Shown piece by piece: positions 1,703 through 58,843 of a stretch of DNA of 58,843 nucleotides. The notes below the pieces were generated by a model. That model was not told the DNA's origin and searched no databases. It worked only from the letters and a program-made list of their open reading frames with translations. Both the position numbers and the translations under genes were made by a program. Each line of letters begins with the position of its first letter. The first letter of the stretch is position 1. Source of the DNA: Longimicrobiales bacterium (GTDB lineage: Bacteria; Gemmatimonadota; Gemmatimonadetes; Longimicrobiales; Gaopeijiaceae); contig CBDDCX010000002.1 in NCBI GenBank assembly GCA_965226375.1, positions 1-58,843 of the forward strand, read 5' to 3'.

Positions 1703-1776
<74 letters not shown>

Positions 1777-2006
1777 CTCGATTGAAATCGCCGCCTTTGG
1801 GCGGCGTTTCCATGTGATGGCTAAGCAGGATTTCAGGGGGTCGGCCGATGTTTCAGACGGATGCCAAACAGGCGCGCGGATGGACGATGGCCGATACGTG
1901 GTCTAGCCCGCGACCGTGGGCGGTCGGGGGGCGCGGCTAGAAACTTCGAGCCCGCACCTCTCGTCAGACCGTCCGCAGCCGACAGGCCTCGGGCGGTTTT
2001 TTTGTC

Positions 2007-2079
2007 GGCCAGGTAGCTCAGTTGGTAGAGCACGCGACTGAAAATCGCGGTGTCGGTGGTTCGATTCCGCCCCTGGCCA
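2007..2079 (+). tRNA. tRNA-Phe(GAA)
   Basis: GGCCAGG...CCTGGCC-A acceptor stem; CT-GAA-AA loop. Confidence 0.95.
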
Positions 2080-2118
2080 TTTGCAGGACTGACCGCGTTG
2101 GCGGCGATTTGAACACAG

Positions 2119-2191
2119 AGGTCCGTAGCTCAACTGGTAGAGCACCGGTCTCCAAAACCGGGGGTTGGGGGTTCGAGTCCCTCCGGGCCTG
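2119..2191 (+). tRNA. tRNA-Trp(CCA)
   Basis: Cloverleaf; CT-CCA-AA loop. Confidence 0.95.
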
Positions 2192-2213
2192 TTTGAAAAG
2201 TAGGTAGGGAGTC

Positions 2214-2285
2214 GCCCTCATCGTCTAACGGTTAGGACGCCAGGTTTTCAACCTGGTAATCGGGGTTCGATTCCCCGTGAGGGCA
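2214..2285 (+). tRNA. tRNA-Glu(TTC)
   Basis: Cloverleaf; TT-TTC-AA loop. Confidence 0.95.
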
Positions 2286-2319
2286 TAGCAGGAACCGGAC
2301 CCAGGATGTCCGGAGGTAA

Positions 2320-2394
2320 GGGGCTGTAGCTCAGTTTGGTTAGAGTGCCGGTCTGTCACACCGGAGGTCGCGGGTTCAAGTCCCGTCAGCCCCG
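2320..2394 (+). tRNA. tRNA-Asp(GTC)
   Basis: Cloverleaf; CT-GTC-AC loop. Confidence 0.95.
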
Positions 2395-2434
2395 TTGGAT
2401 GTGCTTTTTGAAAGATCATCGGTGAAGTGTGCTA

Positions 2435-2507
<73 letters not shown>

Positions 2508-2522
2508 CTGCAACCGGATCAA

Positions 2523-2607
2523 GCTCGGGTGGCGGAATTGGTAGACGCGCAGGGTTCAGGACCCTGTGGGGGTTAACCCCGTGAGGGTTCGAGTCCCTCC
2601 TCGAGCA
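2523..2607 (+). tRNA. tRNA-Leu(CAG)
   Basis: Long variable arm; TT-CAG-GA loop. Confidence 0.95.
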
Positions 2608-2644
2608 TTTGTTCTGTTCGACTCAGGTTTGATTCAGGCAGATT

Positions 2645-2728
2645 GCCCACGTGCTGGAATTGGTAGACAGGCTGGTTTGAGGGACCAGTGTCGGAAACGG
2701 CGTACAGGTTCGAGTCCTGTCGTGGGCA
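2645..2728 (+). tRNA. tRNA-Leu(GAG)
   Basis: Long variable arm; TT-GAG-GG loop. Confidence 0.95.
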
Positions 2729-2897
2729 CTTTTTCGCGGACGCTTTTGGCGCATGGCGGCGTCGGGACTGCGGTCGTCCCTCCCTGTGGCGTACGGTTGT
2801 ACGCCTCAGTCGGGGCGCCTTGCCCTCCTTGCTCTACACCAAAATCGCTCCGCGAAAAAGAGTGGTCTTCGAGATCACTGCATTGCGGTTTGTTTTT

Positions 2898-2971
2898 GCG
2901 CCCGTAGCTCAGCTGGATAGAGTGCCTGGCTACGGACCAGGAGGTCGGGGGTTCGAATCCCTCCGGGCGCG
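2898..2971 (+). tRNA. tRNA-Arg(ACG)
   Basis: Cloverleaf; CT-ACG-GA loop. Confidence 0.95.
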
Positions 2972-3006
2972 TTTGATGTACGAAACACGCATGGCGAGAG
3001 AGGACC

Positions 3007-3080
<74 letters not shown>

Positions 3081-3126
3081 CTATAGGCGGCCCTCAGCAA
3101 AAAGGCCGGGTGGCCGAACAAGGTCG

Positions 3127-3199
3127 GGGGCCGTAGCTCAGTTGGGAGAGCGCAGCGTTCGCAACGCTGAGGTCAGGGGTTCGATTCCCCTCGGCTCCA
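3127..3199 (+). tRNA. tRNA-Ala(CGC)
   Basis: Cloverleaf; G3:U70; TT-CGC-AA loop. Confidence 0.95.
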
Positions 3200-3207
3200 C
3201 TTGGTTT

Positions 3208-3280
3208 GCCACCTTAGCTCAGTTGGTAGAGCACGTCACTCGTAATGACGGGGTCGTCGGTTCAACTCCGACAGGTGGCT
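3208..3280 (+). tRNA. tRNA-Thr(CGT)
   Basis: Cloverleaf; CT-CGT-AA loop. Confidence 0.95.
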
Positions 3281-3286
3281 CTTGTT

Positions 3287-3359
3287 TGCCCCTTGGTGTA
3301 ACTGGAAACACGCCGGATTCTGGTTCTGGAGAGTCTAGGTTCGAGCCCTAGAGGGGCAA
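3287..3359 (+). tRNA. tRNA-Gln(CTG)
   Basis: Cloverleaf; TT-CTG-GT loop. Confidence 0.93.
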
Positions 3360-3375
3360 CTTACACGACACTGTG

Positions 3376-3459
3376 GGAGGGATGGCCGAGTGGCTTAAGG
3401 CGACGCCCTGCTAAGGCGTTGGACGCAAGTCCGCGTGGGTTCGAATCCCACTCCCTCCG
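3376..3459 (+). tRNA. tRNA-Ser(GCT)
   Basis: Long variable arm; CT-GCT-AA loop. Confidence 0.95.
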
Positions 3460-3518
3460 TTTCTTACCAAATCGCGAGGGCGACGTGGGGTCTTAGTCCC
3501 CCCGTTTGGTCTGAATTT

Positions 3519-3602
3519 GGATGGGTGGCCGAGCGGCTTAAGGCGCACGATTGGAAATCGTGTGGGTTAATACCCTCGTGGGTTCGAATCCCACCCCATC
3601 CG
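3519..3602 (+). tRNA. tRNA-Ser(GGA)
   Basis: Long variable arm; TT-GGA-AA loop. Confidence 0.95.
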
Positions 3603-3734
3603 TTGGGGTTGCCGCAAGGCAACCAAGGGTGATTTGGGACTCGTTCGAGTGCTCTCCCACTCCGTTCCGCTAGGAGTAGGATGGCCCACGCGTCCCGTAG
3701 GGACGCGGTTTCTGGGCGCTTGATGAGGGAATTT

Positions 3735-3808
3735 CGGGGCGTGGCTCAGTTCGGTAGAGCGCTGCGTTCGGGACGCAGAGGTCCCCGGTTCAAATCCGGG
3801 CGCCCCGA
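3735..3808 (+). tRNA. tRNA-Pro(CGG)
   Basis: Cloverleaf; TT-CGG-GA loop. Confidence 0.95.
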
Positions 3809-3824
3809 CTGTATTGCGACGTTT

Positions 3825-3907
3825 GGAGCCGTCGCATAATTGGTATTGCACCAGTCTCGAAAACTGGCGCCCGTGAGGGTGTGTGGGTTCGAGTCCCACC
3901 GGCTCCG
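3825..3907 (+). tRNA. tRNA-Ser(CGA), probable integration site
   Basis: Long variable arm; CT-CGA-AA loop; integrase gene ends 60 bp downstream. Confidence 0.92.
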
Positions 3908-3910
3908 CTG

Positions 3911-48552: not shown

Positions 48553-48767
48553 CTATTCCCCCGCCACCTCTTCCACCGCCCCCGCCTTGAACGCCTCATA
48601 GAGCGCCTTAGCCACCGGCCCCACCGTTCCGCCCCCGACTGGCCGCCCATCCAACTCCACCGTCGGCCGCACCTCTGTAGTCGTGCCCGTGAAGAAGATC
48701 TCGTCCGCCTCCCGCATCTCCTCCAAGGGAATCGCCCGCTCGACCACGGTCATGCCCATCCCCCGGG
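48553..48767 (-). pseudogene. 3' fragment of a class IV aminotransferase (IlvE/DAT-like)
   Basis: VVERAI..EEMREADEIFFTGTTTEVRP.VELDG..VG.G..GP; upstream part replaced by the integrase element end. Confidence 0.85.
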
Positions 48768-50126
48768 CAGGAATTGGCATACTATCTGGACCGATGTGCA
48801 GCATCGTCCAGTACCGTCCATAAGTGATTGCTATAACAATAGTTTATGGCCATACACTAGCAGTGTACTCCGCTCGCGCCATCCATTGATATCCACTCCC
48901 ATCCCCTATATTATGTGGGGATGGTTACTGTAACGAACAAGGCCACTCCGCCGCGGAAAACCAAGCCTAAGGGCCGTCATCCCGACAAGGCCTTGTCGGC
49001 CGCCTTCGTACGCACCGCCCCGCCTGGAAGACACGCGGACGGCAACGGGTTGTACCTCTTCGTCCAGCCGAGCGGAACCCGGAGCTGGATTCAACGCCTG
49101 GTCATCCGCGGCCGGCGCCGCGAGCTCGGGCTCGGCAGCGTCGCGCTGGTCTCCCTCGCCGAGGCCCGGGAGAAGGCGCTGGCCAACCGCAAGCTGGCCC
49201 GCGAGGGCGGCGACCCGCTTGCCGAGAAGCGTCGTGCGCAGGGCGTGCCGAGCTTCGCTGAAGCCACCGCGCGTGTGGTGGAACAGAAGCGCGCCGGCTG
49301 GCGAAGTCGGGCGCACGGCCGCGAGTGGATCTTGACCTTCGAGCGGTACGCCTTCCCGCGTATCGGGAAGATGCCGGTGTCGGAGGTCACGAGCGCCGAC
49401 CTGCTGGAGATCCTCGCCCCCATCTGGCACACGAAGGCGGAGACCGCCCGGCGGTTGCGCCAACGCCTCCGTGCGGTGTTGGAGTGGGCGGTGGCGATGG
49501 AGTTCCGGATCGACAACCCGTGCGACCGGATCGACCCGGTCCTGGGTCCACAGCATGACGTCGTGCAGCACATGCGGGCCTTGCCGCATCGCGAGGTGGC
49601 CGCGGCGATTCGGACGGCGCGGGAATCGACGGTGCTGTTGGCCGTCCGGCTGGCATTCGAGTTCCTAGTGCTGACGGCGGCGCGATGGGGCGAGGTACGC
49701 TGGGCCGAGTGGACCGAGATCGCTCGGGACGAGGGCGTGTGGACCGTCCCGGCTAGGCGGACGAAGGCGAATCGGGAGCACCGGGTGCCGCTTTGTGGTC
49801 GGGCATTAGAGATTCTGGACGAGGCACGGACGCTCGTGAAGGGAACCAGTCCATATCTGTTTCCCAATCGGGTTGGCAAGCAGCTCGAGGAGAAGCAACT
49901 GCGCCGGATGTTCCAGAAGCACGGGATCGCCGCTGTGCCCCACGGGTTTCGCTCAAGCTTCCGGGACTGGGCGGCCGAGGAGACGGACCATCCGCGCGAA
50001 GTCGTCGAAGCGGCCCTCGCACATGTGGTCCAGAACAGGGTCGAGGCAGCCTATCGGCGCACGGACCTATTCGACCGCCGACGTCGGCTCATGGACGACT
50101 GGGCCGGCTACTTGGCTGGCGAGTGA
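48768..50126 (+). mobile_element. P4-like integrase element, copy 1 (left end + integrase CDS 48921-50126)
   Basis: ADGNGLYL arm-binding domain, LTAARWGE, PHGFRSSFRDW, LAH...AY; ~150-bp left end homologous to copy 2. Confidence 0.92.
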
Positions 50127-50474
50127 GACCCGGAGGCCAGAGCGATCGGTTGATCCGCCGCGCCCTCAGCGGCGCTCGACTGCGGGGTCGCTCCAACCAT
50201 GCACCCCAATGGGTGCAACAGGACGCCCTTCCACCCCGACTCGTCACGTGGTTACCCGCACCGCAGGTTGGCGAGCCGATGCACTATGCCGCGATGGTCC
50301 GGCAGACCTGCCCAGCATATTAGGAACCTCACGCTGCCAACCCACGAGTCTTGATAGAGAGTTCGCGTGGTCCCCTCCATCCGGAGAGTTTGTCTGCTAT
50401 GCGATGGTATTCACCTGACAGTGTGGTGTGAACGCCCCTGGCAACGTGGCTGCTCCTCATACTATATTGCCGGT

Positions 50475-50609
50475 GGACCCAGCGGCAGACTTTGTGCCAT
50501 GTTTCGTGGCACTTGAAACAAACGGCAGGTCCGTTTGCTCATCTCATCGCGGCAGCGATGTCCTAGTCTCACAGGCATTGAGTCTTCGCCAAGGAGTGCC
50601 GCTGGGTCC
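50475..50609 (+). ncRNA. Retron msr-msd RNA
   Basis: Perfect 13-bp a1/a2 IR GGACCCAGCGGCA (50475-50487) / TGCCGCTGGGTCC (50597-50609); G at 50488 in the branching position; stem-loops 50494-50512 and 50519-50537; 22 nt upstream of the RT start. Confidence 0.85.
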
Positions 50610-50631
50610 TCCTATTCCCTCGTAGTGATAC

Positions 50632-52053
50632 ATGTCACAGCTGCGCACGCTACAATCTGCCTCGAGTTTGCGGGACGTCGCTAACCTACTGCACATAAGA
50701 CCCGCCAACCTCTCCTACATACTGTACCACCTGCGACCAGAGACCAAGTACTCTACGTTTACAATTCCGAAGCGGAACGGTGGCACACGTATCATTATGG
50801 CACCCGCAGAACCGCTGAAAATTGTACAGAAACGACTGTCCGTCCTTCTACAGGATTGTCTAGATGAGAACCAGACCCGGAAGGACAATGACAGGATCGC
50901 ACACGGCTTCAAACGCAGAAGATCCATCATAACCAACGCAAAGCAGCACCGGCACCGCCGGTATGTCTTCAACGTTGATCTATCAGATTTCTTCCCGTCT
51001 ATCAATTTCGGTCGGGTCCGAGGATACTTTATCCATGACAGCCACTTCAGCCTACAGAACCGTAATAGCGACTGTATCCCCGTACGCGGCTGGAGCTGGA
51101 CGAGTTCTTCCCCGACCGTCCTTCTACAGGATTGTCTAGATGAGAACCAGACCCGGAAGGACAATGACAGGATCGCACACGGCTTCAAACGCAGAAGATC
51201 CATCACAAGACAGCGTAACCAACGCAAAGCAGCACCGGCACCGCCGGTATGTCTTCAACGTTGATCTATCAGATTTCTTCCCGTCTATCAATTTCGGTCG
51301 GGTCCGAGGATACTTTATCCATGACAGCCACCCGGGCTCGCGGCCTGTTGTTCAGCCTACACGCAAAGGTTGCGACCGTAATAGCACAAATTGCGTGCCA
51401 CGAAAATGCTTTGCCACAAGGCAGCCCTTCCTCACCGGTCATCTCTAACTTGATTACCCACCTCATGGATGTACATCTGGTCCGACTCTCGCTTCGCGTC
51501 GGCTGCATGTACTCTCGTTACGCTGATGATCTAACCTTTTCGACAAACAAGAGGATCTTTCCCTCGGAGATCGCCACAAGTGCCGATGGTGACCCACACA
51601 ATTGGAATCCAGGTAACGAACTTCTAAACGTAGTCGTGCGCTCTGGTTTTGCTCTTAACGACTCCAAGATCCACATGCAATACCAGACTTCTCGTCAAGT
51701 AGTAACCGGCCTCGTCGTGAATCGTCGAATCAATGTCCGACGTGAATATCGCCATCTCGTACGGGCCATGGTTCATAATTTGTTCACGAATGGTGCGTTC
51801 GAAATATCCCGCCACACCAAGTCTAATGGCGTAGATACCATTGAGAAGAGACCAGGTACGATGAATGAACTTCAAGGTATGCTCGGGTTCATCCGCGGCG
51901 TGGATCTCTACAATCTCCGAGCCTCTTATCCAGACCTCGCGATCAACGAACTACCCGAAGAAGTTCAGAACAAAATCCAGAATAGGGAGGCGATGTACCG
52001 TAGTTTTCTTTTTTGTCGGAACTTCTTTGTACCTGAAAAGCCCGTCATTGTCT
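50632..52053 (+). pseudogene. Retron reverse transcriptase, Ec67-like (RT-TOPRIM), with scrambled internal duplication and IS3-truncated C-terminus
   Basis: IPKRNGG.R, HGF, NAKQH (NAxxH), DLSDFFPSI, LPQGSPSSP, RYADDLTFS, VTGLVVN; ends PVIV at the IS3 IR, where TOPRIM would begin. Confidence 0.88.
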
Positions 52054-53326
52054 TGACCTGCCCCCAAGAGTGGTACCACATCCTATGTTAGTCCCAGCAC
52101 CTGTGGAGGGCCGTGAAGGACGGGCATCCTCAGGAACCAGGGCGACGGCTTAATCGCCTCAGGGGCCGGGGGAAAGCCGCCGCAGGCGCTGTGGGGTCGG
52201 ACGGTATTGTACTCGCGCCTCCATTGCTCGACCAGCACGGACGCCTGCGCCAACGAGTAGAAGATCTCCCCGTTCAACAGCTCGTCCCTGAGCTTGCCGT
52301 TGAAGCTCTCGTTGTAGCCGTTCTCCCACGGGCTGCCCGGCTCGATAAAGAGCGTCTCGACGCCCACGCGCCCCAACCACCGCCGCACGAGCTTCGCGGT
52401 GAACTCCGGTCCGTTGTCCGACCTCAGATACTCGGGAGGCCCGTGTCGGACGAACAGATCGGCCAGCACCTCGAGCACGTCGTGCGAGCGGATCTTGCGA
52501 GCCACCACGATCGCCAGGCACTCCCTCGTGTGCTCGTCCAGCACTGTCAGCAGCTTCAGCGCACGCCCGTCGTGCGTCCTCGAGGCCACGAAGTCGTACG
52601 ACCAGACGTGGCCCCGATACAGCGGCCTCAGCCGGATGCACGATCCGTCGTTGAGCCACAGCCGACCTCGCTTCGGCTGCCGCTCCGGCACCTTCAGCCC
52701 CTCCTGCCTCCAGATCCGCTCCACCCGCTTGTGGTTCACCCCCCAGCCCTCGATGCGGAGCATGTCCGTGACGCGTCGGTAGCCGTAGCGGCCGAATCGA
52801 CTCGCTAACCGCACCACGTCGGAGCGAAGCGCCGCCTCGTCGGCCCGCACCTTCCGCCGACGATGCTGCGTCGACCGTGACTGGCCCGAGCACCCGGCAC
52901 GCTCTCCTCTCCGACGCTCCGAGCTGCTGACGTACACGCACCACACAACGTCGTCGGCGCTCGGGGCTCAGAAGTTTCCCTTGGCCGCTTCCTCCAGGAT
53001 CAGCTTGTCCAGTGTCAAGTCCGCCACTGCTCGCTTCAGGCGCCCGTTCTCGCGCTCGAGCTCCTTCAGGCGCCGTGCCCCTGGCTCACCTTCATCCCGC
53101 CGTACTCCCGCCTCCACCGGTAGTACGTCTGCTCGGTGATGCCGAGCTCCCGGCTGATCAGCTTCACGGATTTGCCGCGGGCCAGACCGACCTCTGCCTC
53201 CCGCAGTGTAGTGATGATCTGCTCCGGAGTGTGTCGCTTCCTTCCCATCCTGACCTCCTCGCTGAAAAGCTTCAGACCAGGTCGATCCTAACATTGCACC
53301 TGGTCTCGTTTCAGGGGGTCAGGTCA
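52054..53326 (-). mobile_element. IS3-family element (orfA/orfB, degenerate)
   Basis: IRR TGACCTGCCCCC at 52054; IRL TGACCTGACCCCC at 53326; orfA MGRKRHTPEQII; GGGAAAC slippery site; orf[19 protein letters not shown]. Confidence 0.92.
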
Positions 53327-53343
53327 CTCTTGGGGGCAGGTCA

Positions 53344-53648
53344 GGTGACCTTGCCCGCCTCATGCCGGAAATGGATGCCGGTGTGCGTCTTGTAGGGGGT
53401 CTTATCCTTCGAGAAGCGCGTGTCCCGATAGGTGCGGAACGAGGAGCCACCATTCGCTCGCGGGTCCGCCCGGAAGCGGGGGCTGATCTGCCTCAGATGG
53501 GGCGCGAAATCGACGATGAAACGCAACGCCGGATCCTTGACATCGTCCTCGTACCGTGGCTTGTGCGCCTGAAACCACTCGCGGTTGTTGTTGTTGGCCA
53601 GTTCGCGAAGAAAGCCAGGGTGGCAGGGGTGAAGTAGTGGGTGGTCAT
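53344..53648 (-). pseudogene. DUF2461-family 5' fragment
   Basis: FTPATLAF-LRELANNNNREWF...YRDTRFSKDKTPYK; frameshift near 53610; cut by an IS end at 53343. Confidence 0.8.
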
Positions 53649-53789
53649 CAGAGGTGGCCCGCGGGTTGGAGGAACGGTGTGATGATCGGCGCTATTCCTT
53701 ACCTTGCGAGACGCCTCCCCGCGCAAGCCGCTCGGAGCGGGTGGGGATCACCGATCCCCAATTCACGATTTCAAGGACGACCAGCGCCA

Positions 53790-54269
53790 ATGGCCATGAC
53801 CAAGCTGAGCCGAACGATAGACGCCGACACCGATGTGGTGTTTGAGACCGTGTCCGACATCTCCAATTTTTCCAAGGCCGTGCCCCATATCGTGCGGGTG
53901 GAGTTCCTCTCCGATGTGAAGGTCGGAGTCGGGGCCAGGTTCCGCGAAACGCGCCTGATGCGGGGGAGGGAAGCCACCACCGAGCTCGAGGTCACCGAAT
54001 TCGTGAAAAACGAGCGGGTCCGGATGGTTTCGGACGCCGGCCGGACGATTTGGGACACAGTCTTCACGGTGACGCCGGATGAGAACGGCCGCGGCACGCG
54101 CCTCGACATGGTGATGGAAGCGCGGCCGTACAGGTTCATGGCAAAGCTGGTGGGTCCCCTGATGAAGGGCATGATCGCCAGGGCGATCGGCGAGGACCTC
54201 GACGCCATCAGGGCGTATTGCGAGGGCGGCGATTCGACCGAGGCGCGGATTTCCGCCACGGGCTCCTAG
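53790..54269 (+). CDS. SRPBCC/polyketide-cyclase family protein
   Basis: SRTIDA...VFETVSD...GVGARFRETR...EDLDAIRAYCE. Confidence 0.8.
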   Translation: MAMTKLSRTIDADTDVVFETVSDISNFSKAVPHIVRVEFLSDVKVGVGARFRETRLMRGREATTELEVTEFVKNERVRMVSDAGRTIWDTVFTVTPDENGRGTRLDMVMEARPYRFMAKLVGPLMKGMIARAIGEDLDAIRAYCEGGDSTEARISATGS

Positions 54270-54404
54270 CGGTTCTGCGTGCCGCTGGTGAAGGACGACC
54301 TCCACAGGTGTGCGCGACGAGTTGGTCTGGTGCCGGATGTGCCCGCGCCTGGTCGCGTGGCGGGAAAAGGTGTCGGCTGAGAAGCGCGCTTCGTACCGCG
54401 ACGA

Positions 54405-54880
54405 CCACTACGGGGGCAGGCCCGTCCCCGGGTTCGGGTCCTTCCCGATCCCAAGACCGGCCTGATCCAGATCGAGTGGCGGGAAGGCGGATGCAGGCTC
54501 AGCAGGTCGCTCAAGCACTGCGAGTGGGCTCGGGCGAAGAAGCAGGCGGACGAGTTCGCCGCAGGCTACCTCGGGCCGGAAGCCCGAAGGTAGAGCGGAA
54601 GCCGAACCTGAGCCGCTCACCCTGGGGACGCTTTTTGACATCTACGGTGATGAGGTCACCCCCACCAAGAGCAAGCGATCCCTGAGGTACGACAGGGTCG
54701 CGATGAAGATGTTCCTCAAGTGCTTCGGCAGGAACCGGAGGCCCCCGACGCTCTCCCAGCGGGACTGGGATCGATTCATCCGGGAGCGGCGATCGGGCAA
54801 GGTCGGCCCGAGCGGCAAGCCGGTGCCCGACCGAACGATCGAACGGGACCTGAGGTTCATGCTCGCCGTCCTCAACTGGG
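54405..54880 (+). pseudogene. N-terminal remnant of a tyrosine integrase
   Basis: [17 protein letters not shown]...LTLGTLFDIY...WDRFI.ERR...RTIERDLRFMLAVLNW (SAM-like core-binding region); frameshifted, cut by IS3. Confidence 0.6.
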
Positions 54881-55337
54881 TGACCTGACCCCCTGAAACG
54901 AGACCAGGTGCAATGTTAGGATGGACCTGGTCTGAAGCTTTTCAGCGAGGAGGTCAGGATGGGAAGGAAGCGACACACTCCGGAGCAGATCATCACTGCA
55001 CTGCGGGAGGCAGAGGTCGGTCTGGCCCGCGGCAAATCCGTGAAGCTGATCAGCCGGGAGCTGGGCATCACCGAGCAGACGTACTACCGGTGGAGGCGGG
55101 AGTACGGCGGGATGAAGGTGAGCCAGGGGCACGGCGCCTGAAGGAGCTCGAGCGCGAGAACGGGCGCCTGAAGCGAGCAGTGGCGGACTTGACACTGGAC
55201 AAGCCGATCCTGGAGGAAGCGGCCAAGGGAAACTTCTGAGCCCCGAGCGCCGACGACGTTGTGTGGTGCGTGTACGTCAGCAGCTCGGAGCGTCGGAGAG
55301 GAGAGCGTGCCGGGTGCTCGGGCAGCCACACACGACC
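54881..55337 (+). mobile_element. IS3-family partial copy (IRL, orfA, start of orfB)
   Basis: Near-identical to 52890-53326 reversed; cut by integrase element copy 2. Confidence 0.9.
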
Positions 55338-56747
55338 CAGGAATGGGCAGACTATCTGGACCGGTGTGCAGTATCGTCCAGTTAAGTCCATAAATGACTG
55401 TGATAACAGTAAGTTACGAGCATAGACTAGCAACGCACTCAGCTCACAACATCCATTGATATCCACTGCCATCCCCTATATTATGCGGGGATGGTTACTG
55501 TAACGAACAAGGCCACTCCGCCGCGGAAAACCAAGCCCAAGGGCCGCCATCCCTATCAGGCCCTGTCGGCCGCCTTCGTGCGCACGGCCCCGCCTGGAAG
55601 ACACGCGGACGGCAACGGTTTGTACCTCTTCGTCCAGCCGAGCGGAACCCGAAGCTGGATTCAGCGCCTGGTCATCCGGGGTCGGCGCCGCGAGCTCGGG
55701 CTCGGCAGCGTTGCGCTGGTCTCCCTCGCCGAGGCCCGGGAAAAGGCGCTGGCCAACCGTAAGCTGGCCCGCGAGGGCGGCGACCCGCTTGCCGAGAAGC
55801 GTCGTAGGCAGGGCGTACCGAGCTTCGCCGAAGCCACCGCGCGTGTGGTAGAACAGAAGCAAGCCGGATGGCGAAATCGGGCGCACGGCCGCGAGTGGAT
55901 CTTGACCTTCGAGCGGTACGCCTTCCCGCGCATCGGGAAGATGCCGGTCTCGGAGGTCACTAGCGCCGACGTGCTGGAGATCCTCGCTCCCATCTGGCAC
56001 ACGAAGGCGGACACCGCCCGGCGGTTGCGGCAGCGCATCCGCGCGGTGTTGGAGTGGGCGGTGGCGATGGAGTTCCGGATCGACAACCCCTGTGACCGGA
56101 TCGACCCGGTCCTGGGTCCACAGCGTGACGTCGTGCAGCACATGCGGGCGCTGCCGCATCGAGAGGTGGCCGCGGCCATCCAGACCGCGCGGGCATCAAC
56201 GGTGCCGCTGGCCGTCCGGCTGGCGTTCGAGTTCCTGGTGCTGACGGCGGCACGATGGGGTGAGGTGCGGTGGGCCGAGTGGACTGAGATTGATCGGGAC
56301 GAGGGTGTGTGGACTGTCCCGGCCAGGCGGACGAAGGCGAACCGCGAGCACCGGGTCCCGCTGTGTGGTCGTGCACTGGAGATTCTGGACGGGGCACGGA
56401 CGCTGGTGAAGGGAACCAGTCCGTATCTGTTTCCCAATCGGCTCGGCAAGCAGCTCGAGGAGAAGCAACTGCGCCGGATGCTCGGGAAGCACAAGATCGC
56501 GGCCGTGCCCCACGGGTTTCGCTCCAGCTTCCGTGATTGGGCGGCCGAGGAAACGGATCATCCCCGCGAGGTCATCGAGGCAGCCTTGGCGCACGTCGTC
56601 CAGAACAGGGTTGAGGCGGCCTATCGGCGCACGGACCTGTTCGAGCGCCGACGCCGGCTCATGGGTGACTGGGCTGCCTATCTAGCCGGAGCGCCGCGAG
56701 AACCAGAGGCCACGACTCCCCGAGGGAATGCCGCCGAGCTCCGATGA
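55338..56747 (+). mobile_element. P4-like integrase element, copy 2 (left end + integrase CDS 55491-56747)
   Basis: Highly similar to copy 1; homology starts at the same CAGGAAT junction. Confidence 0.92.
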
Positions 56748-58287: not shown

Positions 58288-58843
58288 ATGAACCAACACA
58301 AATTCGTTTTCTCGTTGGCGGGGATCGCGGCGCTGCTGGTGGCGGCCCCGGCCATGGGGCAGTTGCTCAACCACCCCGTCCATTCATTGGGGATGGGCCC
58401 GGCCGACGGAGCCACTTTCTTTGCGTTTCAAACCTCTCGTGGATTCAATGACGACTCGGGTAAGCAAATGTCGTGGGCCGCGGCGGTCGGAAGAGGCATG
58501 GAGCGCGTTTCCTTCGCGGGAATGGTGGGCTATGTGGGGAGCGACACCGACGAGCTAACGCTCGCTGCTGCGGTGGCCGTGCACCTCCTCCCTGACCCGG
58601 ACGCCGTTCAGGTGAGCCTTCAGGGTGGCTACGGGTGGGCGTCGATCGATGGCACTCCCGACAACACATCGTTGAGCAACTTTCCGATCGGCATAGCCCT
58701 CTCAACCGCGCCCAGCGACGCGGACACGGAGGTCAGACCTTAGGTGATGCCCCGCCTCAACATTGCCCGACAATCTACCGGCGGTACCAGCAGCACCGAT
58801 ACGGACTTCGGCGTGTCGGGGGGCGTGGTGTGGACGGTAGTAT
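58288..58843 (+). CDS. Outer-membrane barrel-like protein, partial, with in-frame TAG at 58741
   Basis: Signal peptide AMGQ; frame stays open past the TAG: EVRP*VMPRLNI...DFGVSGGVVW. Confidence 0.6.

Follow-up and report, generated by a model that had tools for sequence, protein, structure and literature searches.

The stretch of DNA analysed here (the window, 58,843 nucleotides) is the entire contig C2 in the assembly of a Longimicrobiales bacterium, a sponge-associated member of the Gemmatimonadota (8 contigs, 4.23 Mb, 63.6% GC). Near its right-hand end it holds two P4-like integrase genes, c2a and c2b, each within a longer unit (48768-50139 and 55338-56712). The units shared 89.6% DNA identity across 1375 alignment columns, and 378 of 400 residues were identical between the proteins. 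In both units homology started at CAGGAAT, behind unrelated DNA: a cut aminotransferase gene in copy 1 and a cut insertion sequence (IS) of the IS3 family in copy 2. An earlier reading of the letters alone (the original prediction) had already described this common start and these neighbours, and alignment of the two units, Pfam and alignment to a full IS3 copy confirmed both. In themselves the two are unremarkable integrase modules, belonging to decayed islands in a region rich in ISs. This text is about their left ends, which evidently encode the tail of another type of integrase.

48921..50126, forward strand: integrase c2a, 401 amino acids, P4-like, with the Pfam domains Arm-DNA-bind_3, Phage_int_M and Phage_integrase
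55491..56747, forward strand: integrase c2b, 418 amino acids, P4-like, with the same three Pfam domains as c2a

The assignment to P4-like integrases was based on Arm-DNA-bind_3 (N-terminal), Phage_int_M (central) and Phage_integrase (C-terminal catalytic), all above cut-off in c2a and c2b. The motifs HGFRSSFR and EAAYRR were visible in the alignment of the two proteins, and we take them to be the catalytic HxxR box and tyrosine. Among related loci, c2b was 94% identical to that of the relative L001 and had 89% DNA identity to L115. The genome holds 7 full-length integrase paralogs. In the wider collection (loci L001-L080), the family was multi-copy, with 67-95% protein identity, in metagenome-assembled genomes labelled Gemmatimonadota, Acidobacteriota, 'Versatilivorator' and Gammaproteobacteria; 9 of the 80 loci came from one chromosome. 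Left-flank signatures differed by subfamily: an Ig-like domain end (VTVTVTVA before the stop), an HNH-endonuclease-like motif on the opposite strand, or a G-rich tract after a hairpin.

The left ends and the corresponding codons of the integrase genes are as follows.

48768..48794, forward strand: copy 1 identity block, attachment (att) core-like 27-mer CAGGAATTGGCATACTATCTGGACCGA, 24/27 against the copy 2 block
55338..55364, forward strand: copy 2 identity block CAGGAATGGGCAGACTATCTGGACCGG, 24/27 against the int-B tail at C7:687253
48768..48827, forward strand: copy 1 replacement tail QELAYYLDRCAASSSTVHK followed by a stop, homologous to the in-frame C-terminus of the L147 and L150 upstream integrases
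55338..55385, forward strand: copy 2 replacement tail QEWADYLDRCAVSSS followed by a stop; the identical peptide closes the L151 B-type integrase
50100..50115, forward strand: c2a's own W-A-G-Y-L codons; homology with the relative L001 stops near here
56670..56685, forward strand: c2b's own W-A-A-Y-L codons; the tail and ~140 bp downstream recur as an orphan

A second P4-like integrase type of the same genome, int-B (contig C7, ~686104-687384), ends in ...MMQAWADYLDRLRAGEE and carries the same three Pfam families above cut-off, as does the integrase upstream of the left end in relative L147. The 27-base block matched the int-B tail at C7:687253 in 24/27 positions and the element's own tail in 17/27, so the left end encodes an integrase tail of another type, not the element's own. 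When the 27-mer 55338-55364 was searched on both strands of the 4.2-Mb genome with up to 6 mismatches, it was found only in copy 1 (3 mismatches) and at C7:687253 (3 mismatches). The match exceeds chance, since the best matches of shuffled blocks (n = 10) had 6-7 mismatches. Tails of the int-B type with this block were present at 89-95% identity in 10 related genomes. The original prediction had seen in the left end a copy of the integrase's own C-terminus. That it is an integrase tail held, and the 15/19 nt match to 56667-56685 was correct on a recount; its attribution to the element itself did not hold.

Homologies, junctions and tandem arrangements were observed directly in relatives. A DNA search with the c2-specific left end gave matches in 17 of 301 genomes of the order, the own genome included, and a pattern with an obligatory ATG codon two codons ahead of the W matched 6 times in 314 family genomes. 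Upstream of the left end we found the following.

L147 (same place as L115), genome G236: in frame, an intact A-type integrase ending ...RRRRLMEEWACYLDRCAVSSSTVHK and a stop, with the three Pfam domains
L150, genome G341: in frame, an intact A-type integrase with a tail as in L147
L152, genome G457: in frame, an A-type fragment
L151, genome G357: in frame, a B-type integrase, cut by the contig start, ending ...PERRVMMQEWADYLDRCAVSSSEVHKRLQ and a stop
L148, genome G200: in frame, a B-type pseudogene
L149, genome G254: a stop codon, then just the codons L-M-Q-D ahead of W

Directly after the left end, L147, L150, L151 and L152 had a c2-type integrase 87-91% identical to c2b. L148 was without one, and L149 had a short N-terminal fragment only. 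The A-type upstream bodies were ~67-69% identical to the element's own integrase and the B-type bodies ~30%; A-type and B-type bodies also shared only ~30% identity with each other. Because the upstream bodies are unrelated while the c2 integrase stays at 87-91% identity to c2b, the joins are separate events at one site. The left end has been joined separately to the W-A-x-Y-L codons of differing integrase genes, and not inherited as one tandem. In L147, L150 and L151 it runs past CAGGAAT, in frame, into an upstream integrase, an arrangement that the original prediction had named as speaking against its own reading. Across three genomes, orthologs of the L147 upstream integrase with 98-99% identity (in G341 and G348) lost homology to it at most 8 nt from the W codon. 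These orthologs bear other tails, none of them the one found after c2, and a clean 1.35-kb insertion, with an empty and a filled site of this upstream integrase, was not shown.

Other kinds of nesting were seen in the family. At L015, L017, L059 and L064, a family member cut integrase genes at RDWAAEETDHP or HG(H/F)RS; these loci included head-to-head pairs with one element inside the N-terminal part of another integrase gene. The distant member L017 adjoined a transfer-messenger RNA (tmRNA)-like 3' end.

No integrase precedes the left end in the window. The features at the two junctions were these.

48553..48767, reverse strand: 3' fragment (C-terminal third) of a class IV aminotransferase gene, cut at the junction; Pfam Aminotran_4 positions 188-220
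54880..55340, forward strand: IS3 bases 1-462, cut in orfB at the copy 2 junction, 97.8% identical to the full copy
52054..53327, reverse strand: full-length IS3-family element, with Pfam HTH_21, rve and rve_3 in orfB; ends mapped

The aminotransferase gene was intact in the relative G001 (286 amino acids), which represents an empty site. Homology of G001 to the window ended within CC(C)AG at 48766-48770, and at the orthologous loci of G337 and G318 the match ran just to the junction. The missing 5' part of the gene was absent from this 90%-complete assembly. The IS3 was cut after ...ACGACCCAG, where intact IS3 variants continue with CGCC. Since CAG is common to IS3 and the element, the copy 2 junction is fixed only to within 3 nt. 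Both interrupted targets read ..CCAG/C, with the break at the slash. A third partner, the end of another IS, was joined 2-3 bases away in L101, and the three non-integrase junctions (aminotransferase, IS3 position 462, L101 IS end) fell within ~3 nt of one another. A transfer RNA (tRNA) or structured-RNA target was ruled out, as none lies at or near either junction; the original prediction had also noted that neither site is a tRNA, and no tRNA or Rfam family was detected at either.

The identical IS3::c2 junction was present in 7 genomes: the present one (G000), G001, G176, G236, G083, G224 and G337. G249, which seems to be the same assembly as G001, was counted once with it. Most of the 7 genomes hold at least 2 copies, including left-end variants that differ by ~20%. 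Such repeated identical junctions are best explained if an invaded IS3 was copied or if one IS3 site was used repeatedly. The junction of IS3 with the left end was bridged in 3 of 4 public sequencing runs examined (records 55311-55485 or 55311-55446).

The other IS3 half was not found behind c2 within ~15 kb in G001. Downstream of c2, G224 had a full IS3 copy and G176 just a piece of bases 807-1274. Another IS3 piece (C6:423910) begins at base 446 and has 17 bp in common with the 1-462 piece. It is also present in G083 and G176; it never adjoined a c2 element, and no link to c2 was established. The breaks of two IS3 pieces on contig C6 of this genome (423910-424740 and 431054-432835) lie at bases 446 and 461/462, where the IS3 in the window is also cut, and the 446-start piece with its AT-rich neighbour was found in 2 copies in G083 and also in G176. 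Between the two facing IS3 left ends of the window (53341-54465) lie a DUF2461 fragment and an intact SRPBCC (Polyketide_cyc2) gene by Pfam, with an apparent uracil-DNA-glycosylase fragment as judged by eye. This stretch recurs inverted beside c2-type copies in G001 and G176.

We consider it probable, with some reserve, that c2-type P4-like islands target the tails of other integrases, and that both window copies are off-target or rearranged junctions. Both copies would be integrase modules at the left attachment site (attL), the left edge of P4-like genomic islands that we call c2-type. The attachment site of the island itself (attP) would consist of the 27-bp block CAGGAATGGGCAGACTATCTGGACCGG, the replacement tail YLDRCAVSSS followed by a stop, candidate arm sites, a promoter and the integrase gene. 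As its normal target (attB) the island would use the conserved W-A-x-Y-L segment in the 3'-terminal coding sequence of a different P4-like integrase, ~15 codons past the catalytic tyrosine. After integration, the tail of that integrase would be exchanged and the two integrase genes would follow one another in tandem. In the window, where the copies sit behind an aminotransferase gene (copy 1) and IS3 orfB (copy 2), the crossover would have followed ..CAG; these junctions may be secondary-site integrations or later site-specific rearrangements, with block and tail borne by the element. The role of the integrase in making the junctions, the extent of the overlap region and the position of the right island ends are inferred from sequence comparison.

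From left to right, the ~150 bases ahead of each start codon contain the 27-base block, a short open reading frame with its stop, two GTCCA(G/T) repeats, promoter-like hexamers and a hairpin that covers the start codon.

48803..48823, forward strand: two GTCCA(G/T) repeats of copy 1, candidate arm-type integrase binding sites; position kept among paralogs and related loci
55373..55393, forward strand: two GTCCA(G/T) repeats of copy 2, candidate arm-type sites; position kept among paralogs and related loci
48886..48924, forward strand: promoter-like TTGATA-N17-TATTAT and a hairpin with an 8-bp stem over the start codon, copy 1; a pattern present in all paralogs
55456..55494, forward strand: promoter-like hexamers and start-codon hairpin, copy 2; coordinates from the pattern

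The repeats may serve as arm-type binding sites for the integrase, and the hexamers as the promoter of its gene.

The original prediction had offered two readings. In the first, the recombination core lay in the 3' end of the integrase gene, and a ~1.3-kb integrase-only circle with a swapped C-terminus would form. Its core placement survives for the 3' ends of other integrase genes, as attB, and fails for the element's own 3' end as attP; the circle is not supported, as upstream integrases are in frame and the flanks rebuild no single target. The second reading, offered as an alternative, is the one that the data support: these elements would target integrase genes and also use off-target sites. 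The left end is joined to A-type and B-type integrases and, outside integrase genes, to IS3, to another IS at its end and to an aminotransferase gene. In 4 of 17 public runs (Logan contigs of 100-600 bases), no joint from ~56680 back to ~55350 was listed, a result that is uninformative on rare circles.

With regard to classical islands, the c2-type elements had the integrase beside one end and a sharp left boundary common to copies in differing contexts; family-wide, this boundary peaked at -170 to -160 in 113 of 187 locus pairs. A direct core repeat that rebuilds the target was found only in sister islands of the int1 type, and not for the c2-type within ~18 kb in 3 genomes. The sister islands involve the two orthologs of the L147 upstream integrase. 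Both adjoin a 21-base block, GCCGTTCTGGCAGCAAGCCTA, which interrupts the 3' end of a conserved gene. A second 21-mer followed 14.4 kb (G341) and 18 kb (G348) downstream, and then the remainder of the conserved gene. The 21-bp direct repeats were perfect or 20/21, and the integrase lay beside attL. This is the textbook order of attL, integrase, cargo and right attachment site (attR). L147 carries the 21-mer only after unrelated DNA, an off-target signature like that of both window copies. In G348, the int-B gene follows the conserved-gene remainder after the second 21-mer. At L145 (G348:C12), at L146 (G341:C4) and on contig C7 of this genome (685480-687384), a conserved gene with no Pfam family lies directly upstream of int-B. 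The 14-18 kb sister islands sit in this gene, which makes them a second kind of island to land on the int-B element.

Copy 1 was followed by a broken cargo gene.

50632..52091, forward strand: broken retron-type reverse transcriptase (RT) cargo of the RT-Toprim type I-C, after copy 1; PADLOC E-values 1e-66 and 5e-86

It matched the profile up to position ~355 of 552-568, the Toprim part having been lost to the IS3 insertion at 52054. It contained a 276-286-bp tandem duplication (50840-51045 and 51116-51331), and its GC content was 51-53%, compared with 63.6% for the genome.

Several observations weigh against c2-type islands that target other integrases' tails. In G357, G341 and G236, the ~18 kb downstream of c2 contained no attR (the block followed by the original tail of the target), so no complete c2-type island could be delimited; the window contig itself ends at 58843, 2 kb past copy 2. 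The missing 5' aminotransferase and 3' IS3 halves, for which the original prediction had suggested a search elsewhere, adjoined no c2 element found, and simple integration at these two sites is therefore not shown. The identical IS3 junction of the 7 genomes could be one old, copied event, which would leave fewer independent junctions. Two further points concern the element's own tail. In 48 of the 187 wider-family locus pairs, which are not mutually independent, homology was lost at +1190 to +1215, inside the integrase's own tail. In addition, 15 near-identical c2-type bodies bore 13 different tails. Both observations are equally compatible with a unit whose end is its own W codon.

Homology ends had further peaks at +1340-1350 (22 pairs) and +1600-1610 (17 pairs), and some pairs shared several kb of cargo. 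Orphan tails that start at the W codon were found at C6:405148 and C7:618397 in this genome and at L119 in a relative. The C7 orphan tail (C7:618258-618397) was 96% conserved in G001, and the c2b tail with ~140 bp was also present behind a different body in L002. Orphan tails are expected as the other junction of insertions into integrase tails, and together these breakpoints show the W-A-x-Y-L codons to be a recurrent recombination junction. Beside the C7 orphan tail lies a ~100-bp repeat (C7:618523-618621; 2524-2622 in L083) with at least 11 copies of 72-81% identity in G001; it may be a small non-autonomous element.

A wider reading, for which we see a modest chance, takes the W-A-x-Y-L codons as a recombination site shared clade-wide by several island types. 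Stacking of islands, swaps of tails and cargo, orphan tails, and 1.35-kb circles from partnering with the own tail would all follow. If true, it would explain the 13 tails on near-identical bodies and the multi-copy family across Gemmatimonadota and Acidobacteriota.

The recurrent tail breakpoints and orphan tails also keep the integrase-only circle alive as a minority reading, which we hold to be unlikely. Here the elements would resemble Mx8: the attP core would lie in the own 3' end of the gene, and the 1.35-kb unit would excise as an integrase-only circle, its integrase then ending in YLDRCAVSSS. Besides the tails and the missing attR, it is favoured by homology between copies that is often confined to the unit (c2b and L001 to +1192; the paralogs c6c and c7a of this genome, 92% over 1350 bp), and by Mx8 and SSV as precedents for an attP inside the integrase gene in the available text of PMC6070905 and PMC4383910. 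The left block, nearer to int-B tails than to the own tail, argues against it. So does the sequence right of the W codon in the window copies, which consists of family-type tails and not of the missing aminotransferase and IS3 halves; the elements thus fall outside the Mx8 type on both sides. In the sister element, the integrase lies beside attL, with 14-18 kb of cargo between perfect repeats. Some pairs with the same left boundary share cargo far past the tail (e.g. -170 to +2677), and copy 1, too, is followed by cargo.

It is also rather doubtful that the left ends are passive tandem remnants, in which an adjacent integrase pair lost its upstream gene by deletion or IS activity and the tail is meaningless, with no site-specific event. 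Tandem pairs do occur in relatives, the region is littered with IS3 copies and fragments of genes, the L149 left end retains 12 extra bases of the upstream gene, and copying of one old event could account for the IS3 junction. However, random deletions are not expected to cluster as observed here: three partners (the aminotransferase gene, the internal IS3 position 462 and the other IS end) were joined within ~3 nt, A-type and B-type integrases both precede the left end, in frame and at the same codons, and the 98-99% identical orthologs of an upstream integrase part from it close to the W codon in three genomes. Least probable is homologous recombination or gene conversion among paralogous integrases, with mosaic tails devoid of att function and breakpoints piled up where conservation ends: although strong conservation of the gene across the family ends with CTCATGGACGACTGGGC and the genome offers 7 full-length paralogs, such exchange cannot create joins to non-homologous DNA (aminotransferase, IS3), and it leaves unexplained both the sharp left boundary and a block with 24/27 positions in common with a ~30%-identical integrase type.

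Elsewhere in the window, 17 tRNA genes lie on one strand within 2.2 kb (1703-3908; Met, Phe, Trp, Glu, Asp, Ala, Leu x2, Arg, Val, Ala, Thr, Gln, Ser x3 and Pro), of 44 tRNA genes assembly-wide.

The c2-type element is thus of a known kind, a P4-like island with replacement sequence in attP, and its choice of target, the tail of another island's integrase, is unusual. For other islands, the available text of PMC10111431 and PMC5704250 describes both off-target insertion and an attP bearing a replacement for target-gene sequence, and Islander relies on a replacement-3'-end rule according to the accessible part of PMC4383910. As in P4-like and tRNA-targeting islands, an Arm-DNA-bind_3 tyrosine integrase lies beside attL, and a block shared with the target is followed by a replacement 3' end; the edge of the block is also where off-target copies are joined, as in replacement-3'-end islands. 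In place of a tRNA gene or a housekeeping gene, however, the target would be the last ~15 codons of another island's integrase gene. The replacement tail is both dissimilar to the native tail and shorter, and attR was not found.

The phage Mx8 of Myxococcus xanthus has its attP inside int, and integration gives int a new 3' end and C-terminus (PMC6070905, and with SSV in PMC4383910, as far as their available text goes). The c2-type resembles Mx8 and SSV in that recombination in the 3' part of an integrase gene alters the C-terminus (available text of PMC6070905). Mx8, however, uses a site in its own int with a host attB as partner, whereas c2 would alter the gene of a resident element and keep its own gene whole.

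Nesting of integrative elements in conserved genes of integrative and conjugative elements (ICEs), tandem accretion and secondary sites are reviewed in PMC5704250, as its available sections indicate. Use of a conserved gene of a mobile element as attB is likewise known, from the available text, for integrative mobilizable elements (IMEs) nested in ICEs (PMC5704250) and for helper-embedded phage-inducible chromosomal islands (PICIs) in prophage late genes (PMC10111431), where composites, tandems and occasional off-target insertions also occur. The targets named in the available text of these two sources are traG, Maff2, SNF2, oriT and phage late genes, and the 3' end of an integrase gene is not among them. 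Those IMEs are described there as mostly using serine recombinases and often disrupting the target, unlike c2. A narrow full-text literature search, which missed most subscription journals, turned up papers on Mx8/SSV, IMEs and helper-embedded PICIs, but in the text it covered none that describes the 3' end of an integrase gene as the attB of another island.

If c2-type islands do target integrase tails, island-mapping software would gain a target class that is possibly filtered out at present, and tandem integrase genes and orphan integrase tails would gain a simple reading. Resident mobile elements would then be platforms for further acquisitions, and the new C-terminus of a resident integrase may alter its activity, as reported for Mx8.

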